This document shows, in pieces, positions 4,175 to 35,958 of a stretch of 35,958 nucleotides of DNA. The position numbers and the translations under genes were made by a program. Where the stretch lies: positions 2,544 to 38,501 of the forward strand of contig JBHLJY010000024.1 in NCBI GenBank assembly GCA_048887225.1, given 5' to 3'. Source of the DNA: Candidatus Hodarchaeota archaeon (GTDB lineage Archaea; Asgardarchaeota; Lokiarchaeia; Sigyniarchaeales; SOKP01). The notes under the pieces were generated by a model that searched no databases, was not told the origin of the DNA, and worked only from the letters and a program-made list of their open reading frames with translations. Within the stretch, counting starts at the first letter, position 1. The number at the start of each line of letters is the position of its first letter.

Positions 4175-6598
4175 TTACCCATTCAGAAAATCACCTTTTT
4201 TTATGAAAACTTTATCTTTAACTAACGAATCAATTGTTTTTTCAATCAAATCTTTTGAATATGTAGTTTCAAGTTCAATAATCTGAACAATACTTCGAAT
4301 CTCTAATTGTCTAACGTTATTCTCCTTAAAAAGCTCAATAATATTGCCTTTAATTTTATCTTTTAAACTAGTTTTATTAATGAAGTGAGTTTTATTATTG
4401 AGGAGGTCCATTATATATCTCTTTTTCTCAATGAAATCCTGATTTTCAGCTAAAAGTGTTTTATATTTTGTATTTGATAAGTTTGTTTCATTTGAAATGA
4501 AATTTTCTAGCCTTGAGAATTCTTTTCCTAATTCTGTTTGATCGTCTCCCTGGAAATAATTTGTCTCTAAATATTCTCTTAAAAATTTTATATGCTCTCC
4601 AACTGAGAAATCTACATATAATTCTGTTAGTAAATCAAATGAATTTTGAAAAATTTCAGCAATATCAATTGTACGTTCCTTTATTATAAAATCATTATCT
4701 TGAAATGGTATAACTGTATTAATTAAATATTTCTTGAAATACTCAAGATCGCTATCATTTACTTCTTTTCTAAGTCTCATAGCAGCAATTCCTTTGAGTG
4801 TTCGTTTAATAATATCTGGTTCTCTTGGATTTAAAATAACATTTTTGTATTTTTTTTTATACGTAATTATTGAATCATATAAGCTATCAATCACTCTCTC
4901 AATTTTTATAGGAATATCGATCCCTTCAGAGTATTGCCTTTTTGCTTCAATAAAATAATTAAAAATAATCTCATCACTTTCAAGAAATTTGGGTTTATAC
5001 GCTTTGGTTCCTCTTTTTACTAATACTTTTACAATTCCTTCTGTATTTCTTGGAATCCGATAATGTAAATCAAATCGATCCAATACTGATTTTTGATCTT
5101 CTGGAAATCCCAAATTTTCTACTAACCTTTTTGAAAAATCATATGCTTCATCCTCAGAACGATAATTTAAAGCAAAACTCACAGTACCTTTTGCAGGAGC
5201 ACTAATTGTAGTTCCATCTAAGGCCCTTGTTATTTCTCCTTCTTCATAGCATTTAAAACATTCTAATGCATCAGGATCTTTTGCATATAAATATTGAGCC
5301 TCATCTATTACAAAATGCTTTTTATTATAATATGGGATTGCACCATATCTTTTCACTAAATTCTTTTCATTATTGTTTCGTTGAGCTACTGGGACCAGAC
5401 CTTTTGATGTAGTATTTTTCCCATATATAATCCCAAAATTATTTGCTCCCAATTTTTCTTTAAAGGCCATAGCGATTTTAGATTTCATTGTTCCTGAATG
5501 ACCTGCAACAATAGAATTTAACCCATTTCTGATATTTGTATATGAATCGCTTGTTATAAATCCTAAAGAATAACATAATTTAATTGGAAAAAAGTTTATA
5601 ATATTTTGAGAATAAGGATGGATTGAATCTATAATTTTATTACAATACAGAGAATCTTTAGCCAAATCCTTTTTAATTCTTTTTACAATTTTAGGATTAA
5701 TATCATTTGTATGACCTGATTCAATATCTAATACTTCAATATAATAAAAAAGCGTTTGATCTTCTTTGTTTGAAAATAGATCTGCCGTATCCATTTTTAA
5801 AAAACCTAATATTTCTATTTCATCATTGCACGTGATATGTTTTGCTTTTTCATTAAAATAATCAATACAATGCGAAATGTAACATCTTATCTCATTAATT
5901 ATATCCTTATTTTCAAGATCTATAATTGTAAATGTTCTTTTTTCATATTTTATTGATTTTTTTTCTAACAATGCGAAATCTGATTTATATTTTGCTTTAC
6001 ATCGTTTATTTATACAAAATTTTGGAGTTTGATATTTTTCTCTTGTTTTACGATAGTAAGGGATTATCTCAAACTCATGGCCACATACTAAGCATTGAAA
6101 CATCATTTTCTCAAATTCTACCATGCGTTCTAATCCTAAAGACATAAATCGCCCTTTAAACCAAAAAATTTTTCCCTGGTCCTGAGTTAAATCTTTTTCA
6201 AAATTATCTCTTAAAGGTATTAAAAATTCCGCATCTTTATTATCTGGAATAATATGAATAATTTTTTGGCTATTATCATCTCTCAAAAGATATTTATTTA
6301 ATTCAGGCTCTATAAACTTCGCGACATTTATTAAAGCCTCTCTAAAATCTTCAAGAAAAAGTTCAGGTTCTTTGCGAAATTTTTTTAAGAGGGGTTCAAA
6401 CATACTTTCTGAAAGTAGATTTTTAAGCTTAAATCTAATAATTGGATTATTTGATCCGTCAATTGTCAATTGTTTAACTAAATCCTCAGCACATTTTAAT
6501 TTTCTAATTCTAATGAGCTCTTCACATAAATTAATATAATTAATCGGTTTCGTTGGTTTTGGTCCTGAATCCTTACTTTTACTCTCTACTATTTCCAA
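4175..6598 (-). CDS. mcm: Divergent MCM replicative helicase
   Basis: Zn finger CLVC..C-x4-C; Walker A GHSGTMKS; Walker B VIDE; arginine finger LDRFDL; sensor-2 NPRE; probable C-terminal winged helix. Confidence 0.9.
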   Translation of the reverse strand: MEIVESKSKDSGPKPTKPINYINLCEELIRIRKLKCAEDLVKQLTIDGSNNPIIRFKLKNLLSESMFEPLLKKFRKEPELFLEDFREALINVAKFIEPELNKYLLRDDNSQKIIHIIPDNKDAEFLIPLRDNFEKDLTQDQGKIFWFKGRFMSLGLERMVEFEKMMFQCLVCGHEFEIIPYYRKTREKYQTPKFCINKRCKAKYKSDFALLEKKSIKYEKRTFTIIDLENKDIINEIRCYISHCIDYFNEKAKHITCNDEIEILGFLKMDTADLFSNKEDQTLFYYIEVLDIESGHTNDINPKIVKRIKKDLAKDSLYCNKIIDSIHPYSQNIINFFPIKLCYSLGFITSDSYTNIRNGLNSIVAGHSGTMKSKIAMAFKEKLGANNFGIIYGKNTTSKGLVPVAQRNNNEKNLVKRYGAIPYYNKKHFVIDEAQYLYAKDPDALECFKCYEEGEITRALDGTTISAPAKGTVSFALNYRSEDEAYDFSKRLVENLGFPEDQKSVLDRFDLHYRIPRNTEGIVKVLVKRGTKAYKPKFLESDEIIFNYFIEAKRQYSEGIDIPIKIERVIDSLYDSIITYKKKYKNVILNPREPDIIKRTLKGIAAMRLRKEVNDSDLEYFKKYLINTVIPFQDNDFIIKERTIDIAEIFQNSFDLLTELYVDFSVGEHIKFLREYLETNYFQGDDQTELGKEFSRLENFISNETNLSNTKYKTLLAENQDFIEKKRYIMDLLNNKTHFINKTSLKDKIKGNIIELFKENNVRQLEIRSIVQIIELETTYSKDLIEKTIDSLVKDKVFIKKGDFLNG

Positions 6599-11836: not shown

Positions 11837-12195
11837 AACGCACCTCTCTTCTTCATTTTATGAAGGATATTAATCGTTGCTTTCACAGCACCAGACCATC
11901 CCCCGCCTCCCCTTTCCTTTTTGTAGTGCTGCTTATAAAGATAACGAGTTGATCCATGACGAAAAAATTGTTCACATTCGATATCTTCATTCATATATTT
12001 CTTAGCAAAACTCATAATATCGTTATAATCAGGAACCTCGAATTTTTTGACTTTTTCTTGTTTCTGTAATGTTGCTCTTGCTTCTGGTCTTTTATTTTCT
12101 GTTTTTGTAGATCTCTCCGAAGATTTAGAACCTTCAGGGGTTATTTCTTTTTCTTTTAATTGAGCTTTCAGTTTATCTTCCCAAGCACTACTCAT
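11833..12195 (-). CDS. Hypothetical basic protein with disordered N-terminus
   Basis: 120 aa, overlaps both neighbours. Confidence 0.65.
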   Translation of the reverse strand: MSSAWEDKLKAQLKEKEITPEGSKSSERSTKTENKRPEARATLQKQEKVKKFEVPDYNDIMSFAKKYMNEDIECEQFFRHGSTRYLYKQHYKKERGGGGWSGAVKATINILHKMKKRGAL

Positions 12196-12601
12196 TTAAA
12201 TACGCCTTTACTGTTTCTATTAATTTTGAATCTATTTTTCTATTTAGAAGTCCTAAAAGCTTATTGATAATCGATGTCGGATATTTAATCTCAAAAATAT
12301 CATCAAATAAGGAGATCAATTGTCTGCAACAACTGTTAATTTCAGTTTGCTTTCTTGTACGTACATCACCATCACTTGCAGGGCCCTTGGATCCTTCAAG
12401 TGTACGTACAATCACATCTTCATTTTTTATGAATGTACGTACAATATCCAATATGTACGTACTAAGCCTTTTATTTTGCTTTTTCGCCTTTTCTAGTAAT
12501 TTTTCCTTAAAATCTGAGTTTATGCGTACGTACAAACGATCATTTTTTTCTCCATCTGTACGTACAACACTATCATTGATTTTATTTTGTACGGACATCA
12601 C
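12188..12601 (-). CDS. RHH-type DNA-binding protein carrying an internal palindrome array
   Basis: RLYVRINSDFKEKLLEKAKKQNKRLSTYILDIV. Confidence 0.75.
   Translation of the reverse strand: MMSVQNKINDSVVRTDGEKNDRLYVRINSDFKEKLLEKAKKQNKRLSTYILDIVRTFIKNEDVIVRTLEGSKGPASDGDVRTRKQTEINSCCRQLISLFDDIFEIKYPTSIINKLLGLLNRKIDSKLIETVKAYLNE
12356..12597. repeat. Seven copies of palindrome TGTACGTACA (four exact, three with one mismatch)
   Basis: Starts at 12356, 12401, 12434, 12454, 12525, 12557, 12588. Confidence 0.95.
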
Positions 12602-12633
12602 TTAAAGATCACACTCTTAAATATTAGCAATTT

Positions 12634-12846
12634 TTAGGTGTTGATTTTTCCCTTTAACTTACCCATCAATTCTGAAAAGGGGATCTCTGATATCTGTTTT
12701 AATGCAAATCTCATAACCTCAGAATTGCTCCTTATTCCAGAAGCGTTTTTGAGATCTGAAAATATCTTATATAATTCATCATCGGGTTTTATGGAAATCC
12801 GTAGTTCAATAGCCTCTTTTTTTGTATTATTCGCATTATTTTTCAT
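12634..12846 (-). CDS. RHH-like regulator, first gene of the early operon
   Basis: ELRISIK..GIRSNSEVMRFAL. Confidence 0.75.
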   Translation of the reverse strand: MKNNANNTKKEAIELRISIKPDDELYKIFSDLKNASGIRSNSEVMRFALKQISEIPFSELMGKLKGKINT

Positions 12847-12986
12847 TTTCTTACACTTTTTTTAAATTTTTTTAAGTAACAGATCCTTTTTTTCATATTT
12901 AAATTTAGTGTAAAAAAGTGAAATAAAAAGACAATTTTTAATTTATTCGCAAAAACTTAAAATTTATGTAAATCCAATTAATAATT
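12847..12986. promoter_or_regulatory. Divergent promoter / switch region
   Basis: 140-bp AT-rich gap between divergent paralogous RHH genes; TTACACT (12851) / AGTGTAA (12907) inverted pair. Confidence 0.55.
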
Positions 12987-13178
12987 ATGGCTAAAAATGA
13001 CCAAAATTTACCTGACATTAAGATACGATTGAATATAAAAGCAGAAAAAGATAACCCAATTTATGATTCCTTTTTAACTATTAAAGAATATTTGGGACAG
13101 AGACTTAATACTGAAGTTATAAGATTCTGTATTATGAGGGCCTATGAAAAACTAAAAGAAGAAGGTAAAATTGATTAA
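12987..13178 (+). CDS. RHH-like regulator (divergent paralog; candidate repressor)
   Basis: KIRLNIK..GQRLNTEVIRFCI. Confidence 0.75.
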   Translation: MAKNDQNLPDIKIRLNIKAEKDNPIYDSFLTIKEYLGQRLNTEVIRFCIMRAYEKLKEEGKID

Positions 13179-13484: not shown

Positions 13485-13820
13485 TTAAAGAAAAGATAAT
13501 TCTTGATTTTTACTAGGGTTTTTTTTAATAATACCCAAATCCTTATTTCTGCTTTCTATTTCTTTTTCAATGATGAATTCACAATATTCTTTTTTCATCA
13601 CATTGAAATATGTTTCAAGATACTGAAAGTAGGGTTTATAATCGTCAGAGATTTCAATTTCGAGATTGATCGCCTTCACCTTTGAACATTTCTGTCTAAA
13701 GGTAATTTTTACTCTATCTATATAAATCCCATTATTTTTTTCTGAATTTAAGGCTTTAAATTTTTGATCATGGATCTTATTTATGAATGCATTTTTTACC
13801 TTTCTATTATAGACCGACAA
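13485..13820 (-). CDS. Hypothetical protein, possible C-terminal RHH
   Basis: NLEIEISDDY..EYCEFIIEKEI; start uncertain. Confidence 0.45.
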   Translation of the reverse strand: MSVYNRKVKNAFINKIHDQKFKALNSEKNNGIYIDRVKITFRQKCSKVKAINLEIEISDDYKPYFQYLETYFNVMKKEYCEFIIEKEIESRNKDLGIIKKNPSKNQELSFL

Positions 13821-13975: not shown

Positions 13976-16378
13976 TTAATATTCTAAAATCCCTTTTTGT
14001 CGAATTGTCTTTTTTATAGGCGTTCTTCCAAGATTTAAGAAATCTTGAGCATTAATACTCTTTTTCTTCTTATTTGCTTCATAAAATTCAATCAATTCAT
14101 CATAAATAATTACCTTCCAACGATCTCTTCTGATCATTTCTCTAAGTAGAGGTTCTTCAAATTTATTGTAAAGCATATTTTCTCTTTTTAAAGGGATCAC
14201 TATAAATCTTTTTATGGAGTAAGAAATATTTGACCCTCTTACTACAGCATCAGTTATTTGAGTCGTGTTTTCAACTTCAAATTCACATTCAATTTTTTCA
14301 TCTTTAATCCATAATACATCGATTTCTTTAATTCTATCTAATCTTTCTAATGGTAATGAAAGTTCTGTTAAACTAAATTTTAAAGTTTCATCATCTTTAT
14401 GTGCACACCAAATTTTATACCCACTTTTTACTCCAATTTCAGCAATATAATTTATTATTATTTGATGCATTTTTTCTTCTCGTTTGAAATCTGGATTTAA
14501 TCTCCATCTTTTGTCTTTTGTTTTTATAGCATAATGCTCTAAAATAGACATCACACTTTGACTTTCAGGAGTAAGAGAATTTGGAAATTTCATGAAAATA
14601 TACTGTATAATATCATCAAATAATACTTTATCTGAACTCTTTAATACATCTAATATTGCTTTTTCAAGTCTTTCATTCAATGGTACTCTTTCTAAGAAAG
14701 AAATTTCACTTGGATTTTTTAACCACCATTTAGTACCTTTCATTAGTCCTTCTTGAATATTCACTAATATTAACTCTTTATCTAAATATTTTTTAAGTAC
14801 ATCCTTTATTTCTACTTTAGCTCCTAATAAAAGACCATTTCTTTCAAGTTCCACATCAACAAAATTAAGTAAATAAGAATAAGAAGTAGGTTCTCTGCGT
14901 TCTGCTAAAATTCTCTTTACTGTTTCAATAATAACTTTATCATAACGCATTTCATCGATATCTTTTTTATATTTTGTCCTTTCTTTCGAAGTTTTTTTAA
15001 ACCTAATATAATAATCTCCAATTGCACTTCCATAAGGTTGTCTCTGAGCTTTAACTGACACAACCGCAGGTGGTTGATAAACGATTTTTTCCATATCAAA
15101 CCCTCCAAAAACAACAGCTCTTATCAATGAATTTCTAATTCTTATACTTGTATTATGAAAAGTTACTGTCATATAACGATTTTTTTTTAGAGTTCTATAT
15201 GTTTGTTTAAAAGCTTGTCTAAGCATTCTATCATATCGAGTAAAATCTTTTTTTTGATATCTATTTATGATTATTTCTCCTTCAAAGTCGATATCATATT
15301 TTAACCATGATGCCCATAAAACACTTAATTCGAAAAATTGTATAGAACCACCATAGGGGGGATCTGTAAAAATATAATCAACACTTCGTTCGGGAACAAT
15401 AGTTTTTCTTGGAAATTTATCATTAATTAATTCAAGTGAAGAATGGTTTTTGATATAATAATCAGCTCCATTCTCTAAATCTTTAAAACTTTTAGCGGGT
15501 TTTAATTCTGAAAAATAATTGTTTGTTTCTTCTTTACCTCTTCTTATTTCTTTATATCTTAATTTAAAATACTCAAATACATTTAATTCCCAATGTTCTG
15601 GAGGAACCCAATAACTATGTGTAACCCATCCTTTGCAAATCTTTCCAAGGCTCTCATGAACATAAGGCATCATATTAGTAAATTGTGCTAATGCAGAAGT
15701 AAAAATGAATTTCATTATTTTTTTTACATTTTCATCCCCTATGGACTCAATTTCATTATAAATTGCTGAAGTAATAACAAGATTTCTATTTGAGAATAAT
15801 TCATACACAAAATCTAATTTCTCTTTTTTCATAGGTGGAAGTTTTACATTTTTAGGATACCAATGCTCAATTTCTATTTCTTTTGATTCTTTTAGATTTT
15901 TCAAATCGGTTTGAGTAAGTTTACTACGAATCCTACCATGTTCATTACATTTAAATATCTTCTGAAACGGTTTATCGTCTTTCCAAGCAGTTCCTAATAA
16001 TTTTGCTTTCTTACGACATTTTAAACATCTAGTTTCATATAGGTACATATAAACCTTCTTTACTCTTTCTACAATATTAATATATGCTTTATCTAACTTT
16101 TCCAAATCTACAGCAATTAGCGAACATTTAGTTATAAAGGTAGAAATTGGATCTAAATCAACACCGATAGCTTTACGACCTAATTTTAATGCCTCCATTA
16201 CTGTCACACCAGAACCACAAAAAGGATCAAAAATAATTTCACCTTCATTTGAATATTTTTCAATATATTTTGAAACGACATTATGAGGTTTCCTAGTCCA
16301 ATATTTATGCATTGAATACATTGGAGTATGAGTCTTAGCTATTATTGGATAATCTATATGTTCCATTTCTTTTGTCAT
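13976..16378 (-). CDS. Amino-DNA methyltransferase (probably N6-adenine) with Zn ribbon and C-terminal PD-(D/E)xK-like domain; fused RM-like enzyme
   Basis: Motif I FDPFCGSG; CLKC..C..H; motif IV TDPPY; C-terminal IDVLW..FEVE. Confidence 0.85.
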   Translation of the reverse strand: MTKEMEHIDYPIIAKTHTPMYSMHKYWTRKPHNVVSKYIEKYSNEGEIIFDPFCGSGVTVMEALKLGRKAIGVDLDPISTFITKCSLIAVDLEKLDKAYINIVERVKKVYMYLYETRCLKCRKKAKLLGTAWKDDKPFQKIFKCNEHGRIRSKLTQTDLKNLKESKEIEIEHWYPKNVKLPPMKKEKLDFVYELFSNRNLVITSAIYNEIESIGDENVKKIMKFIFTSALAQFTNMMPYVHESLGKICKGWVTHSYWVPPEHWELNVFEYFKLRYKEIRRGKEETNNYFSELKPAKSFKDLENGADYYIKNHSSLELINDKFPRKTIVPERSVDYIFTDPPYGGSIQFFELSVLWASWLKYDIDFEGEIIINRYQKKDFTRYDRMLRQAFKQTYRTLKKNRYMTVTFHNTSIRIRNSLIRAVVFGGFDMEKIVYQPPAVVSVKAQRQPYGSAIGDYYIRFKKTSKERTKYKKDIDEMRYDKVIIETVKRILAERREPTSYSYLLNFVDVELERNGLLLGAKVEIKDVLKKYLDKELILVNIQEGLMKGTKWWLKNPSEISFLERVPLNERLEKAILDVLKSSDKVLFDDIIQYIFMKFPNSLTPESQSVMSILEHYAIKTKDKRWRLNPDFKREEKMHQIIINYIAEIGVKSGYKIWCAHKDDETLKFSLTELSLPLERLDRIKEIDVLWIKDEKIECEFEVENTTQITDAVVRGSNISYSIKRFIVIPLKRENMLYNKFEEPLLREMIRRDRWKVIIYDELIEFYEANKKKKSINAQDFLNLGRTPIKKTIRQKGILEY

Positions 16379-16514
16379 AAATTAAATTTACTTTTCTAAT
16401 TATTTATTCTTTAAGATTAATTATTTTTTCGGTTCCAGGATAAATAAAACTTTAATTTGAAATTTGAATTTTATAAAAAGAAAAAAAATATTAATTATTT
16501 TTTTTAATATAAAA

Positions 16515-16910
16515 ATGAAAGAAGTATGGTATCCTGATTTCGATGATATAATGGAAGTTTTTAGAAAATTGCTAGATAGATTCAGAGATTTGAGAAAGGA
16601 AAATCTAATGGATGAGAGAGCAATTAAAAGCATATTAGATAAAGTGAGATATGGATTGCCTTTTAAAAGTTCTGATTTCTGGGAAAAAGTAGCGATTCTA
16701 TGGCATGATATTAGTTATGAACATCATTTTTCAAATGGAAATAAAAGAGTGGGTTATTTTGCTATGCGATTATTCTTAAAGAAGAATGGATATAAACTCA
16801 AGAAAATCTCTGATGAGGAAAAAATTGATTATTGTCTCGAAATTGCGAAAGGAAATATGAATTATAACGCAATTGTCTTATGGTTAAAAATTAATAGTGA
16901 AAAAATATAA
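16515..16910 (+). CDS. doc: Doc/Fic-family toxin (start revised to ATG 16515)
   Basis: HHFSNGNKRVG matches the Doc-type HxFx(D/N)GNKR motif. Confidence 0.85.
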   Translation: MKEVWYPDFDDIMEVFRKLLDRFRDLRKENLMDERAIKSILDKVRYGLPFKSSDFWEKVAILWHDISYEHHFSNGNKRVGYFAMRLFLKKNGYKLKKISDEEKIDYCLEIAKGNMNYNAIVLWLKINSEKI

Positions 16911-23534: not shown

Positions 23535-24057
23535 ATGTAATTATGATAACTATTACAACAAAAAATAGTGCTAAAACCCATACAACAAAAAATACTATAA
23601 AATTCAGTGTATCAGGAGCAAAAAGATACCACAAATATCCGATTAGCAAATAGATTAACATTACTGTAATATAGCTGAAAACCTTATACTCCAGTACTTT
23701 AAAATTAGAAATAATTCTCCCTAATATAAGTAGACTAATTGGTGCACATATAGTCATAAGAAAAGTCCCCCAGTCTAATATATCTAACGTAGTTAAATTT
23801 GTAAAAATTCCTAAACTATATAATGTATACCCGAAATAATAAACAATCAATAAAACCCTTAGAGTTTTACAGATTTTTGATTCAGGAATTGACAGGATTT
23901 TAGCAAGAGTTAATACTCCTATTATCCCAACGGTTAATGTACGTAAAAATGAACTACAATACCAAAATACGATTGGAACAATAAAATCCATTGGAGCATA
24001 AATAAAATTCAAGATCCCTACTAAAACCTCTACAAGATTAGCCATTTTCATAATCAC
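23500..24057 (-). CDS. Integral membrane protein (about 5-6 TM)
   Basis: Almost entirely hydrophobic 185 aa. Confidence 0.75.
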   Translation of the reverse strand: MIMKMANLVEVLVGILNFIYAPMDFIVPIVFWYCSSFLRTLTVGIIGVLTLAKILSIPESKICKTLRVLLIVYYFGYTLYSLGIFTNLTTLDILDWGTFLMTICAPISLLILGRIISNFKVLEYKVFSYITVMLIYLLIGYLWYLFAPDTLNFIVFFVVWVLALFFVVIVIIITFAGGKKPIEQK

Positions 24058-35545: not shown

Positions 35546-35958
35546 TTCTATTTCACTTTGGTTAGATTTTTAAATTATTTTTAAATATTAATTGGGAATC
35601 GATGCTTATAAACTTGTGTGCAAATGTTTTGCAATGTATTACACCATTGATCTATTAAAATATTTTCTTAATGAAAATTATTAAGACTAAGAATATTCTG
35701 TAAAGAATTATAACCAAAATCAAGAAATATATGATTAGATTAAAGATTTCAGAATTTTTATTAAAATTTTTATTTTATGGAAAAAATTAGATCTTAGAGG
35801 AAAATAAAGATTTGCATTTTAAAACATGCCTATAAAAAAATTAATTTTTTTCCTTGTGATACTTTTCTTTACACTTGCTCAATATTATTCCTCTAATATT
35901 GATGACTTGTAATAAAATGTAATACATTTAAATACTTTTAATTCATATAATGATCAAC
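35546..35958. promoter_or_regulatory. AT-rich upstream region with palindrome AAATGTA-A-TACATTT (35915-35929) and related AATGTATTACA (35633-35643)
   Basis: Non-coding, upstream of the 18-kb operon. Confidence 0.35.

Follow-up and report, generated by a model that had tools for sequence, protein, structure and literature searches.

Spaced short sites within the gene of an RHH protein in an Asgard archaeal mobile element: candidate docking sites for its own product

The gene and the sites it contains

The window, as we call the whole stretch of 35,958 nucleotides analyzed here, belongs to a mobile element of a Loki-type Asgard archaeon and has on its minus strand a long early operon that reaches the gene of an MCM helicase (4175-6598). 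Its second gene, at 12188-12601, encodes a protein laid out as an N-terminal tail, an RHH domain, a flexible linker and a predicted C-terminal helical dimerization domain. Two more small RHH-like genes (12634-12846 and 12987-13178) adjoin it, and the gene downstream codes for a product of 120 aa with no match in Pfam or PHROG. The morphogenesis genes of the element lie apart from this early/replication module, at 17-35 kb, and a non-coding stretch of about 1 kb contains, at 1836-2132, three CTTGTA and five TACAAG boxes with an exact 20-bp period, inverted around some 160 AT-rich bp. Inside the RHH gene, seven sites of the TGTACGTACA type are spread over 242 bp (12356-12597), at the positions where the initial annotation had placed seven palindromes. 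The seven sites stand, four being exact and three carrying one mismatch, but only four of them are perfect palindromes.

12188..12601, minus strand: gene of the RHH protein, 137 aa from the GTG at 12601 or 136 aa from the ATG at 12598 (open reading frame list)
12422..12550, minus strand: predicted RHH DNA-binding domain, codons 18-60 (HMM alignment to AtaR/KacA)
12197..12352, minus strand: C-terminal helical domain, codons 84-135, conserved across the family (family alignments), with zero sites inside
12356..12365: site 1, exact TGTACGTACA, D-VRT, aa 79-82, linker
12401..12410: site 2, exact TGTACGTACA, I-VRT, aa 64-67, linker
12434..12443: site 3, exact TGTACGTACA, I-VRT, aa 53-56, RHH helix 2
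12454..12463: site 4, one mismatch, TGTACGTACT, STYI, aa 47-50, another frame
12525..12534: site 5, one mismatch, CGTACGTACA, LYVR, aa 23-26, RHH beta-strand, in the third frame
12557..12566: site 6, exact TGTACGTACA, V-VRT, aa 12-15, N-terminal tail
12588..12597: site 7, one mismatch, TGTACGGACA, coding strand ATG TCC GTA CAA, MSVQ, overlapping the ATG

The 8-mer GTACGTAC is retained in the one-mismatch sites at 12454 and 12525. Relative to the coding sequence, the seven sites fall in phases 2, 2, 2, 0, 1, 2 and 1, so that all three frames are occupied, and the peptides written across them (DVRT, IVRT, IVRT, STYI, LYVR, VVRT and MSVQ) agree with the first reading. Their spacings of 45, 33, 20, 71, 32 and 31 bp had been described as mostly near multiples of a helical turn, which is only moderately true for the window array alone. 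The enrichment analysis that the initial annotation called for gave a clear answer: 0.21 matches with up to one mismatch are expected per window, none of 100 dinucleotide shuffles of the window reaches 8, and the sole further one-mismatch match outside the array lies at 23938. The remark that no full copy occurs elsewhere in the window can be extended to the whole genome of 3,271,338 bp, in which exact TGTACGTACA is found only in those four copies and GTACGTAC occurs 11 times, 6 of them inside the array over a stretch of 210 bp. The identical array sequence is present in a second assembly (a Logan contig), probably built from the same reads.

Selection on the DNA of the array

From the use of all three frames it had been proposed that selection acts here on the DNA rather than the peptide, and codon choice bears this out. 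The arginine codon CGT, which is rare (10.8% usage), is present in 4/4 VRT sites, whereas four of the five arginine codons outside the sites are AGA or AGG; similarly, both tyrosine codons within sites are TAC (18.8% usage) and both outside are TAT. When the same protein was recoded with the codon usage of the genome, the mean was 0.29 sites (up to one mismatch) with a maximum of 4 in 5000 trials, and codon shuffles of the gene gave an expectation of 0.05, as against the 7 sites observed. The rare in-site codons and the synonymous-recoding test together show that the DNA, not the peptide, is under selection in the array. In a codon alignment of five homologues (30-54% amino acid identity), site columns are 79% identical compared with 53% elsewhere, and third codon positions are 75% identical within sites compared with 37% elsewhere, about twice as conserved. 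We also considered VRT as a functional peptide repeat and rejected it, as the sites lie in three frames, not every copy is coding and conservation extends to third codon positions; in the proteome, VRT is not enriched (63 occurrences observed, 56 expected).

The protein family, its arrays and its reading residues

The window protein has no match in Pfam at E 0.1, but against PHROG it matches the Arc-like repressor PHROG 582 (E 1.7e-5), and its homologues match the NikA-like, TacA1 and DUF6290 profiles, all below gathering scores; every one of these profiles is an RHH profile. A search of the PDB with the family profile returned AtaR as the best match (E 0.011), with KacA at 0.1, 56B at 0.16 and Mnt at 0.52, and RHH proteins made up the best match and 6 of the 12 among the chains listed. 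As a monomer the protein was modeled poorly by AF2 (pLDDT 59), with helices at residues 29-41 and 46-69. The homodimer model, by contrast, scored 0.61 against 0.00 for the best of 3 controls, on a scale whose mark is attained by 20 of 30 proteins solved as one-chain pairs and by 1 of the 23 that were solved as single chains. Between the homodimer runs at least 85% of contacts agree, the pLDDT of the partner is at least 71, and the modeled interface takes in residues 17-29, 31-68 and 84-135, the C-terminal domain being predicted as a second dimer interface. Because RHH dimers are well represented among solved structures, this pass may come partly from the memory of the model. An Atlas search for structural neighbors of the C-terminal domain gave none that was informative. 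As far as the sub-threshold profile matches and the dimer model indicate, then, the protein is a DUF1778/TacA-like RHH protein with a C-terminal dimerization domain.

Its best sequence matches among solved structures are KacA, AtaR and TacA (DUF1778; PDB 5ZGN, 6AJM/6GTS), autoregulators whose dimers are bridged into higher-order complexes and which share with it an R-x-x-x-R reading head in the beta-strand. In the window protein this strand reads D-R22-L-Y24-V-R26-I-N, and its LYVR portion is encoded by the site at 12525-12534. The crystal structure of KacA with DNA has operator arms TGTACGG, nearly the same word as the window site; in it R12 touches the G of TGT and R8 of both subunits touches the central C:G and G, and either R8A or R12A abolishes binding (PMC6698736). 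KacA R12 and R8 align to R26 and R22 of the window protein, and the DNA-contact residues of KacA together align to R22/Y24/R26. The two systems differ in that KacA uses one bipartite promoter operator spanning the transcription start, whereas the window has 7 sites within coding sequence, and in that the KacA C-terminus binds a downstream-encoded GNAT toxin, whereas the C-terminal domain of the window protein is a self-dimerizing helical module in the model. No GNAT gene was found downstream of the window gene; the downstream gene is not conserved, and the genes in that position differ between homologous loci.

Homologues, distant ones, were obtained with an exhaustive HMMER search (a word-indexed protein search returned only the window protein). 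All 11 metagenomic loci fetched with a full-length family gene have TGT-N4-ACA arrays (N3 in L142), in or beside that gene, in several frames and mostly as V-x-T codons, with 5-9 sites per array compared with 7 in the window. The density of TGT-N4-ACA is 7.7 per kb in family genes, as opposed to 0.23 in their flanks and 0.17 in the genome. Fourteen more distant N-terminal RHH matches in Asgard genomes, which we took as controls, have no such arrays, and the density at their loci is 0.32 per kb. Over the window and the homologues the site centers are ACGT, GCGC, GATC/CATC, CAAT and ACGG, distributed among the homologues as follows.

L015: site center GCGC
L016/17, L018, L021 and L139: site center [CG]AT[CG]
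L019 and L020: site center GATC
L022: site center ACGG
L140, second gene: site center CAAT, 9 sites
L142: site TGTCGGACA

Most sites in the relatives are non-palindromic and share one orientation (TGTCATCACA, TGTCAATACA, TGTCGGACA). The site overlapping the start codon recurs, with MSVQ, MSSQ or MSVH as the encoded peptide, and some sites fall outside coding DNA: four are intergenic in L019, one is 23 bp upstream in L021 and three are upstream in L075. The array itself shifts among relatives, lying in the gene, in the next gene or between convergent genes. Spacings over all loci concentrate around 20-25 and 30-35 bp (a 10.5-bp period gives a Rayleigh R of 0.40), a statistic that overstates significance because homologues inherit common spacings by descent. 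Beyond the family, RHH genes with R-x-[DE]-x-R strands in unrelated viral contigs hold TGTACGTACA arrays inside themselves, L075/L091 having five VRTK repeats besides the upstream sites and L084 three in-gene sites. The GTACGTAC pair pattern is in no genome among 100 relatives, a close homologue of the window protein is in none of 60, and a search via the MCM protein for relatives of the element found none among the genome contigs or viral contigs searched. One candidate, P0003 (2723 aa, 14 matched stretches), was discarded as an unrelated coiled-coil repeat protein.

These comparisons bear on the idea that the repeats act in the mRNA, their palindromes pairing with one another to control translation or stability, or else as targets of a methyltransferase or restriction enzyme, which we consider exceedingly unlikely. 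The sense RNA of the array does fold at z = -6 relative to shuffles, but any repeated palindrome would trivially give a low folding energy, and the sites of most relatives are non-palindromic in a single orientation, some of them in non-transcribed or intergenic DNA. The centers ACGT, GCGC and GATC are classical tetramers of methylation or restriction, and an N6/N4 methylase gene (an 800-aa DNA methyltransferase) lies 1.4 kb away, with another in L020; against this, the non-palindromic centers and the invariant TGT/ACA flanks are unlike a Type II target, and GTAC occurs outside the array only slightly less often than at the genome rate.

The initial annotation had asked whether homologous genes carry palindrome arrays of their own that co-vary with RHH beta-strand residues, and they do: the arrays differ, and the differences track the reading residues. 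R26 and the outer TGT/ACA are invariant across the family. Residue 22 is R wherever the center contains CG (window, L015 and L022), and is K, Y or H wherever the center is [GC]AT[GC] or CAAT (L016, L018, L019, L020, L021, L139 and the second gene of L140). L142 breaks the simple rule, with residues K/S/R and a site with a 9-bp, CG-containing center, and the co-variation as a whole rests on few, related lineages.

This co-variation argues that the binder is the family protein itself. The sites might instead be bound by another protein, either a neighboring small RHH protein or one of the GntR-type winged-helix class, a possibility that we regard as improbable. GntR-type operators follow the pattern (T)GT-N-AC(A), and Bacillus AraR, of the GntR family, has operators with TGTACGTACA as their core, although the resemblance is one of words only, and our literature search on the exact 10-mers returned only AraR operators and chance occurrences in primers. 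The same palindrome occurs in pairs between HTH repressor genes in the viral contig L040, and the 70-aa neighbor of the window protein attains the RHH_1 gathering score. However, only the family gene is linked consistently to arrays across loci, the site center co-varies with residues of the family protein, no GntR match is present among the neighboring ORFs, and the beta-strands of the neighbors, judged from their translations, have no R-x-x-x-R reading head. KacA, moreover, is a direct structural precedent for the family protein. The suggestion that the array is bound by the RHH protein it encodes is therefore probably right, given the homologue arrays, the co-variation and the KacA half-site. 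Most likely the gene is also a landing pad for its product, because related elements show the same arrangement with the palindromes re-spelled.

Possible roles of the array

The reading we favor, with modest confidence, is that the palindromes are the cognate docking sites of the RHH protein encoded around them and likely serve an immunity-type or autoregulatory roadblock or silencing complex. One RHH dimer would occupy each 10-bp site with its paired beta-strands in the major groove. On the scheme taken from KacA, R26 of each subunit would contact the G of the outer TGT/ACA and R22 of both subunits the central CpG, and Y24 may tune the reading of the site center. Most sites are separated by two to four helical turns, and the dimers could be joined by the flexible linker and the C-terminal second interface into a higher-order nucleoprotein complex, which would extend over the first 240 bp of the gene that encodes the protein. 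Because this gene heads a long early operon with the MCM helicase gene at its end, negative feedback would be the most likely effect, the roadblock or silencing complex throttling the replication genes. An element-specific 'immunity' might be an added outcome, since relatives have changed the site center and the reading residues together.

Of the three functions first proposed for the array (a parS-like centromere in the gene, an autoregulatory roadblock and an iteron array), roadblock or autoregulation appears to agree best with the conserved location of the gene, at the front of the early operon: the window, L019 and L140/L141 all have the family gene in the initial 1-1.5 kb of a long unidirectional operon, beside a divergent promoter region. 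Classical promoter occlusion is not supported, because no promoter in the element has a copy of the site, and because the homologous family genes have Shine-Dalgarno sites and lie inside operons. There is a TATA-like AATATTTAA about 25 bp upstream of the ATG in the window gene. We weighed an internal leaderless promoter whose transcription start would lie under site 7, but did not adopt it, in view of those Shine-Dalgarno sites and the operonic packing. The 'stoperators' bound by gp71 of mycobacteriophage L5 are sites in and between genes that block elongation and define immunity specificity. They differ from the window sites in being asymmetric, oriented with transcription, genome-wide and bound by an HTH repressor, whereas the window sites are symmetric, clustered in one gene and paired with an RHH protein.

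The main rival, to our judgment rather doubtful, is a centromere-like role in segregation or anchoring, in which the RHH-coated array would couple the episomal circle to a motor, a membrane or the chromosome and the site center would be the incompatibility determinant. An array of five to nine spaced sites over 240-590 bp is more usual for a centromere than for an operator, specificity diversifies between relatives, and the position of the array relative to genes is not conserved; a cis site that works independently of position, for example a centromere, would account for a moving array no less well than a roadblock does. Omega of pSM19035, ParG of TP228 and ParR of R1 and pSK41 are centromere binders and repressors whose RHH dimers sit on arrays of short repeats, with specificities that differ between plasmids. 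Their repeats are contiguous and upstream of the operon, with a ParA or ParM partner alongside, whereas the window sites are spaced 20-71 bp apart, in the protein's own codons and without a partner NTPase. SegB of Saccharolobus is likewise an archaeal RHH protein that forms higher-order complexes, on short palindromes that are mostly intragenic (83.7%) and clustered around its own locus (PMC12284271). It differs in its partner, the adjacently encoded ParA-type SegA, for which the window element has no counterpart, and in its sites, 13-bp TCTAGA-S-TCTAGA words scattered over the chromosome as opposed to a tight array in a gene; no sequence relationship of the window protein to SegB was detected. 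Against a centromere, a six-frame search of the whole genome found no CbiA or AAA_31 (ParA/SegA-type) ATPase on the contig of the element (C24), with 11-13 matches elsewhere, none is recorded on the longer homologous contigs, Pfam scans gave no ParM-like or TubZ-like gene, and the element is able to integrate, so that partition is not strictly needed.

Cis sites lying in the gene of their own binding protein are known from the lambda ori in gene O, P1 pac in pacA, Bacillus subtilis parS in spo0J and the pT181 ori in repC, and in the lambdoid phages it is the part coding for the linker that contains the ori sites, which co-vary with the N-terminal domain. The window shares the placement of these sites, but the folds and functions are others and the element has no terminase or ParB. 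By this analogy the array could be a replication origin in an initiator-like gene, the RHH protein recruiting the MCM helicase via its C-terminal domain: dyad-symmetric sites lie in the linker-coding part of the gene of a two-domain DNA-binding protein, gene and MCM share an operon, and specificity co-varies between relatives as it does in lambdoid phages. We hold this to be very unlikely, because a separate and much more origin-like region exists at 1836-2132, which also disfavors the iteron array of the initial annotation. Besides, no distinct AT-rich unwinding element was found adjoining the array, and in L019 and L140 the sites are largely outside the gene.

The comparison with pac leads to a further reading, in which the RHH-array complex would mark element DNA for loading into a vesicle-like particle. 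Known pac sites occur inside terminase small-subunit genes, and the pac of phage P1 is made up of seven short Dam-site repeats within pacA. Contigs of tailed phages have the same palindrome array as the window at the front of the packaging module: the L084 RHH gene, with its in-gene sites, overlaps the beginning of the gene for the terminase small subunit, which is followed by the large subunit and portal, and L051 has seven sites just upstream of the large terminase gene. In the window and its homologues, however, the gene belongs to the early/replication module, away from the morphogenesis genes, and the element encodes no terminase, so we think packaging quite unlikely.

Docking sites for the encoded protein, the reading we prefer, would carry several implications. 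The same 240 bp must serve both a protein fold and a lattice of protein-binding sites, a natural case of dual coding in which the comparative data show protein and sites changing together; in the window, if self-binding is true, one of the sites encodes LYVR, the very strand by which the protein reads them. The alignment to KacA also yields a testable recognition code for DUF1778-type RHH proteins, anchored on a solved structure, in which residue 22 would specify the central dinucleotide and R26 the outer G. More tentatively, we propose that the gene is self-addressed, an RHH code and a multi-site landing pad forming a stand-alone, NTPase-free module of element identity in Asgard archaeal mobile elements. 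If this is true, the module would set immunity or incompatibility, and possibly segregation or anchoring, and new specificities would arise by coupled changes in two beta-strand residues and four central base pairs that are themselves codons of the same protein. We found no description in the literature of intragenic self-site arrays for RHH proteins, and to our knowledge no regulator-operator pair has been characterized in Asgard mobile elements, so the array gives a first handle on their regulation or maintenance. From its recurrence in unrelated phage contigs, the arrangement of an RHH gene with its sites inside it may be a general design that has been overlooked, one linking cis site and trans factor in compact mobile genomes.

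A palindrome array within an RHH gene

We located four exact copies of TGTACGTACA in the window, at 12356, 12401, 12434 and 12557, and three copies with one mismatch, at 12454, 12525 and 12588, against 0.21 matches expected from shuffles of the window, which confirms the seven palindromes that the initial annotation had described. All of them are confined to the first 246 bp of a minus-strand ORF (12188-12601, the array gene), predicted to encode a 137-aa ribbon-helix-helix (RHH) protein. The exact 10-mer is absent elsewhere in the 3.27-Mb genome, the four copies in the window being the only ones, and 6 of the 11 genome-wide copies of GTACGTAC fall in the array. Numbered by coordinate, sites 1-7 lie in phases 2, 2, 2, 0, 1, 2 and 1 of the ORF and encode DVRT, IVRT, IVRT, STYI, LYVR, VVRT and MSVQ, respectively. 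When the same protein was recoded synonymously with the codon usage of the genome, a mean of 0.29 sites and a maximum of 4 arose in 5000 trials, versus the 7 observed. Arginine is encoded by the rare codon CGT (10.8% usage) in each of the four VRT sites, and both in-site tyrosines by TAC (18.8%), while AGA and TAT are mostly used in the rest of the gene; the VRT tripeptide is not over-represented in the proteome (63 observed, 56 expected). These counts, expectations and codon choices demonstrate that the array is real, far beyond chance, and that constraint acts on the DNA and not on the peptide, as had been proposed from the use of all three frames.

Arrays in homologous loci and in viral contigs

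An exhaustive HMMER search returned about ten distant homologues of the array protein (the family), metagenomic in every case, and the DNA of all of them was compared. Every locus with a family gene carries a TGT-N4-ACA array in or beside that gene, in more than one frame, and the words differ among loci; homologous genes thus have palindrome arrays of their own, a possibility raised in the initial annotation.

Site words at homologous loci (L-numbers are metagenomic or viral loci compared with the window)
L015: TGTGCGCACA
L016/17, L018, L021 and L139: TGT[CG]AT[CG]ACA, five or six sites each
L019: TGTGATCACA, four intergenic copies where two genes converge and one inside the family gene
L020: TGTGATCACA, six sites, of which two fall in the following gene
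L022: TGTACGGACA
L140, second gene: TGTCAATACA, nine sites spread across two genes
L142: TGTCGGACA, a 9-bp variant

The layout is conserved among L016/17, L018, L021 and L139, with two sites in the N-terminal tail and three in the linker, separated by a gap of 133-136 bp where the RHH is encoded. At L019:1944-2051, the four exact intergenic sites occupy non-coding DNA exactly between two convergent genes, one of them homologous to window ORF 13485-13820, and adjoin the divergent promoter region that heads the family-gene operon. L140:946-2348 (JGI 3300026184) and L141 have two RHH genes in tandem, the first fused to a MUG113/T5orf172 nuclease-like domain (P0011) and the second a true family member, whose nine sites extend into the following gene and encode DVNT, NVDT, SVNT and EVNT in its lysine-rich beginning. 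Across loci, sites in the commonest frame encode V-x-T (VRT, VIT, VNT, VMT, VLT, VDT).

Family genes contain 7.7 TGT-N4-ACA words per kb, compared with 0.23 for the DNA flanking them, 0.32 for 14 control loci whose RHH proteins are more distantly related and 0.17 genome-wide. When the codons of five homologues were aligned, identity was 79% in site columns versus 53% elsewhere, and 75% versus 37% at third codon positions; judged from this alignment, the conservation at synonymous positions is a phylogenetic footprint. Only the family gene is common to all loci, the neighbouring genes being different. Two preferred site spacings, of 20-25 and 30-35 bp, emerge across loci (Rayleigh R 0.40, 10.5-bp period), consistent with same-face binding, with a p-value that is overstated because the homologues are not independent. 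The repeats could also act at the RNA level, as the favourable fold (z = -6) would have it, or be restriction or methylation targets. We consider both readings weak: the low fold energy is a trivial result of palindrome repetition, and against both stand the words of the relatives, which are non-palindromic and mostly co-oriented, with TGT/ACA fixed.

Moreover, pairs of TGTACGTACA separated by 8-38 bp were found in at least 101 IMG/VR stretches of 33-72% GC (L038-L117), including a recurrent group at about 70% GC with three sites spaced 23 and 34 bp and one at about 38% GC with five sites between HTH repressor genes (L040). TGTACGTACA is a widely reused operator word. An unrelated 46%-GC viral contig (L075:11127-11700, IMGVR_UViG_3300024433_000773, mirrored in L091:340-920) has an architecture like that of the window: a protein of 158 aa that combines an Arc-like RHH at its C terminus (strand R-L-D-L-R) with a lysine-rich linker containing five VRTK repeats, all written as GTACGTACA, with three further exact TGTACGTACA sites just upstream. 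Both arrays lie less than 350 bp from a contig end. L084:71-3947 (IMGVR_UViG_3300036851_000186) encodes a 92-aa RHH-like protein (strand R-L-E-L-R) with three in-gene sites, all VRT. These contigs are independent support for an RHH protein with sites in its own gene. The L084 gene overlaps the start of the terminase small subunit gene, followed by the large terminase and portal genes, and in L051 a large terminase gene is immediately preceded by seven sites (4664-4846). The sites of these two contigs may serve pac/cos recognition or late-operon control. By analogy, a packaging signal is suggested for the window as well; against this, its array gene belongs to the early module, well away from the morphogenesis genes.

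We found no description in the literature of in-gene self-sites for RHH proteins or Asgard elements. Binding proteins of other folds are known to have cis sites within their own genes (lambda O/ori, P1 pacA/pac, spo0J/parS, repC/ori), and possible further cases are a GGTATACC array in an archaeon and a GAAC/GTTC lattice on a plasmid.

The array protein and its probable recognition of the sites

The window protein has no match in Pfam and matches PHROG 582, "Arc-like repressor"; its homologues give sub-threshold matches to NikA-like, TacA1 and DUF6290, all RHH families, and the family profile matches the solved RHH domains of AtaR (E 0.011), KacA, SIRV 56B and Mnt. A homodimer model scored 0.61, versus 0.00 for the best of 3 controls (contact agreement of at least 85%, pLDDT of at least 71), a mark that 20 of 30 proteins with structures solved as one-chain pairs attain, and 1 of 23 with single-chain structures. 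In the model, residues 17-68 (RHH strand and helices) form one interface and residues 84-135 (C-terminal helical domain) a second. Disorder is predicted for the tail (1-17) and linker (62-81). The protein is predicted to work like DUF1778 RHH antitoxins, and to be a distant relative of them. A TacA/KacA-type antitoxin was rejected, since a GNAT toxin is lacking and the C-terminal domains differ.

In the profile alignment, R22, Y24 and R26 of the window protein correspond to R8, D10 and R12 of KacA. In the KacA-DNA crystal structure, one RHH dimer binds each operator arm, TGTACGG; within the arm, R12 contacts the guanine of TGT, the R8 residues of the two subunits the central C:G and G, and D10 the C, and R8A or R12A abolishes binding (PMC6698736). 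This arm is nearly the repeated word of the window, and site 7 and the L022 sites match it exactly. Throughout the family, neither R26 nor the outer TGT/ACA varies; residue 22 is R where the site centre contains CG (window, L015, L022) and K, Y or H where it is [GC]AT[GC] or CAAT. The co-variation with strand residues proposed in the initial annotation thus holds for residue 22, with L142 as an exception to the simple rule. Together with the viral parallels, this indicates that the 137-aa protein probably binds its own gene, one dimer per site.

Genomic setting and a proposed regulatory role

The window is most of a 38.5-kb contig, C24, whose other main features are, in window coordinates:
1836-2132: origin-like structure, in a non-coding stretch of roughly 1 kb
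4175-6598: MCM helicase gene
13976-16378: N6/N4 DNA methyltransferase gene (800 aa, long C-terminal extension)
16464-16910: Fic/DOC gene, divergent from and adjoining the methyltransferase gene

We also identified a radical-SAM-like gene and a beta-helix protein. The same methyltransferase on L005 has a weak NmeDI_C match among precomputed Pfam hits. A direct repeat of about 60 bp (ATATTATTCCTCTAATATTGATGAC...) near both ends of C24 (contig ~59-120, outside the window, and window ~35882-35944) would fit att sites of the element or the junction of its circular form.

The origin-like structure has three (A)GCTTGTA boxes (CTTGTA core) and five TTTTTACAAG boxes (TACAAG core), each at an exact 20-bp period, the groups being inverted about ~160 AT-rich bp; copies of AATCACGAAAA start at 1845, 2133 and 2304, with a further repeat, of 17-bp period, at 2431-2505. 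Because of this separate region, it is unlikely that the array is a replication origin, and with it the iteron reading of the initial annotation. Its centromere reading is possible: the archaeal RHH protein SegB has palindromic sites that are mainly intragenic and clustered near its own locus (PMC12284271), and the position of our arrays is not fixed relative to genes. Nevertheless, while the use of arrays is shared with RHH centromere-binding proteins and SegB, their partner NTPase is missing from the element and from longer homologous contigs, and a six-frame search of C24 found no ParA/SegA-type ATPase.

We favour a regulatory role, in line with the roadblock or autoregulation that had also been proposed. 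The closest characterised relatives of the array protein are autorepressors. Nearly all genes of the window are on the minus strand, and the array gene is the second of a long early operon running from the divergent promoter region 12847-12986 to MCM; in the window, L019 and L140/141, the family gene lies at most 1-1.5 kb into a long unidirectional operon adjoining such a region. A TATA-like AATATTTAA about 25 bp 5′ of the array-gene ATG (12602-12640, minus strand) could be an internal promoter, and between the two, within the end of the upstream RHH gene, there is a half-site-like GTGTGATC. Classical repression fits poorly with two observations: sites are absent from all promoters, and the family genes, which lie inside operons, are preceded by Shine-Dalgarno sites. 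The mechanism would therefore be an elongation roadblock or a silencing complex. A protein array at the head of the operon would throttle all downstream genes, MCM included, and the diversified site specificity of the family may, by analogy, resemble heteroimmunity.
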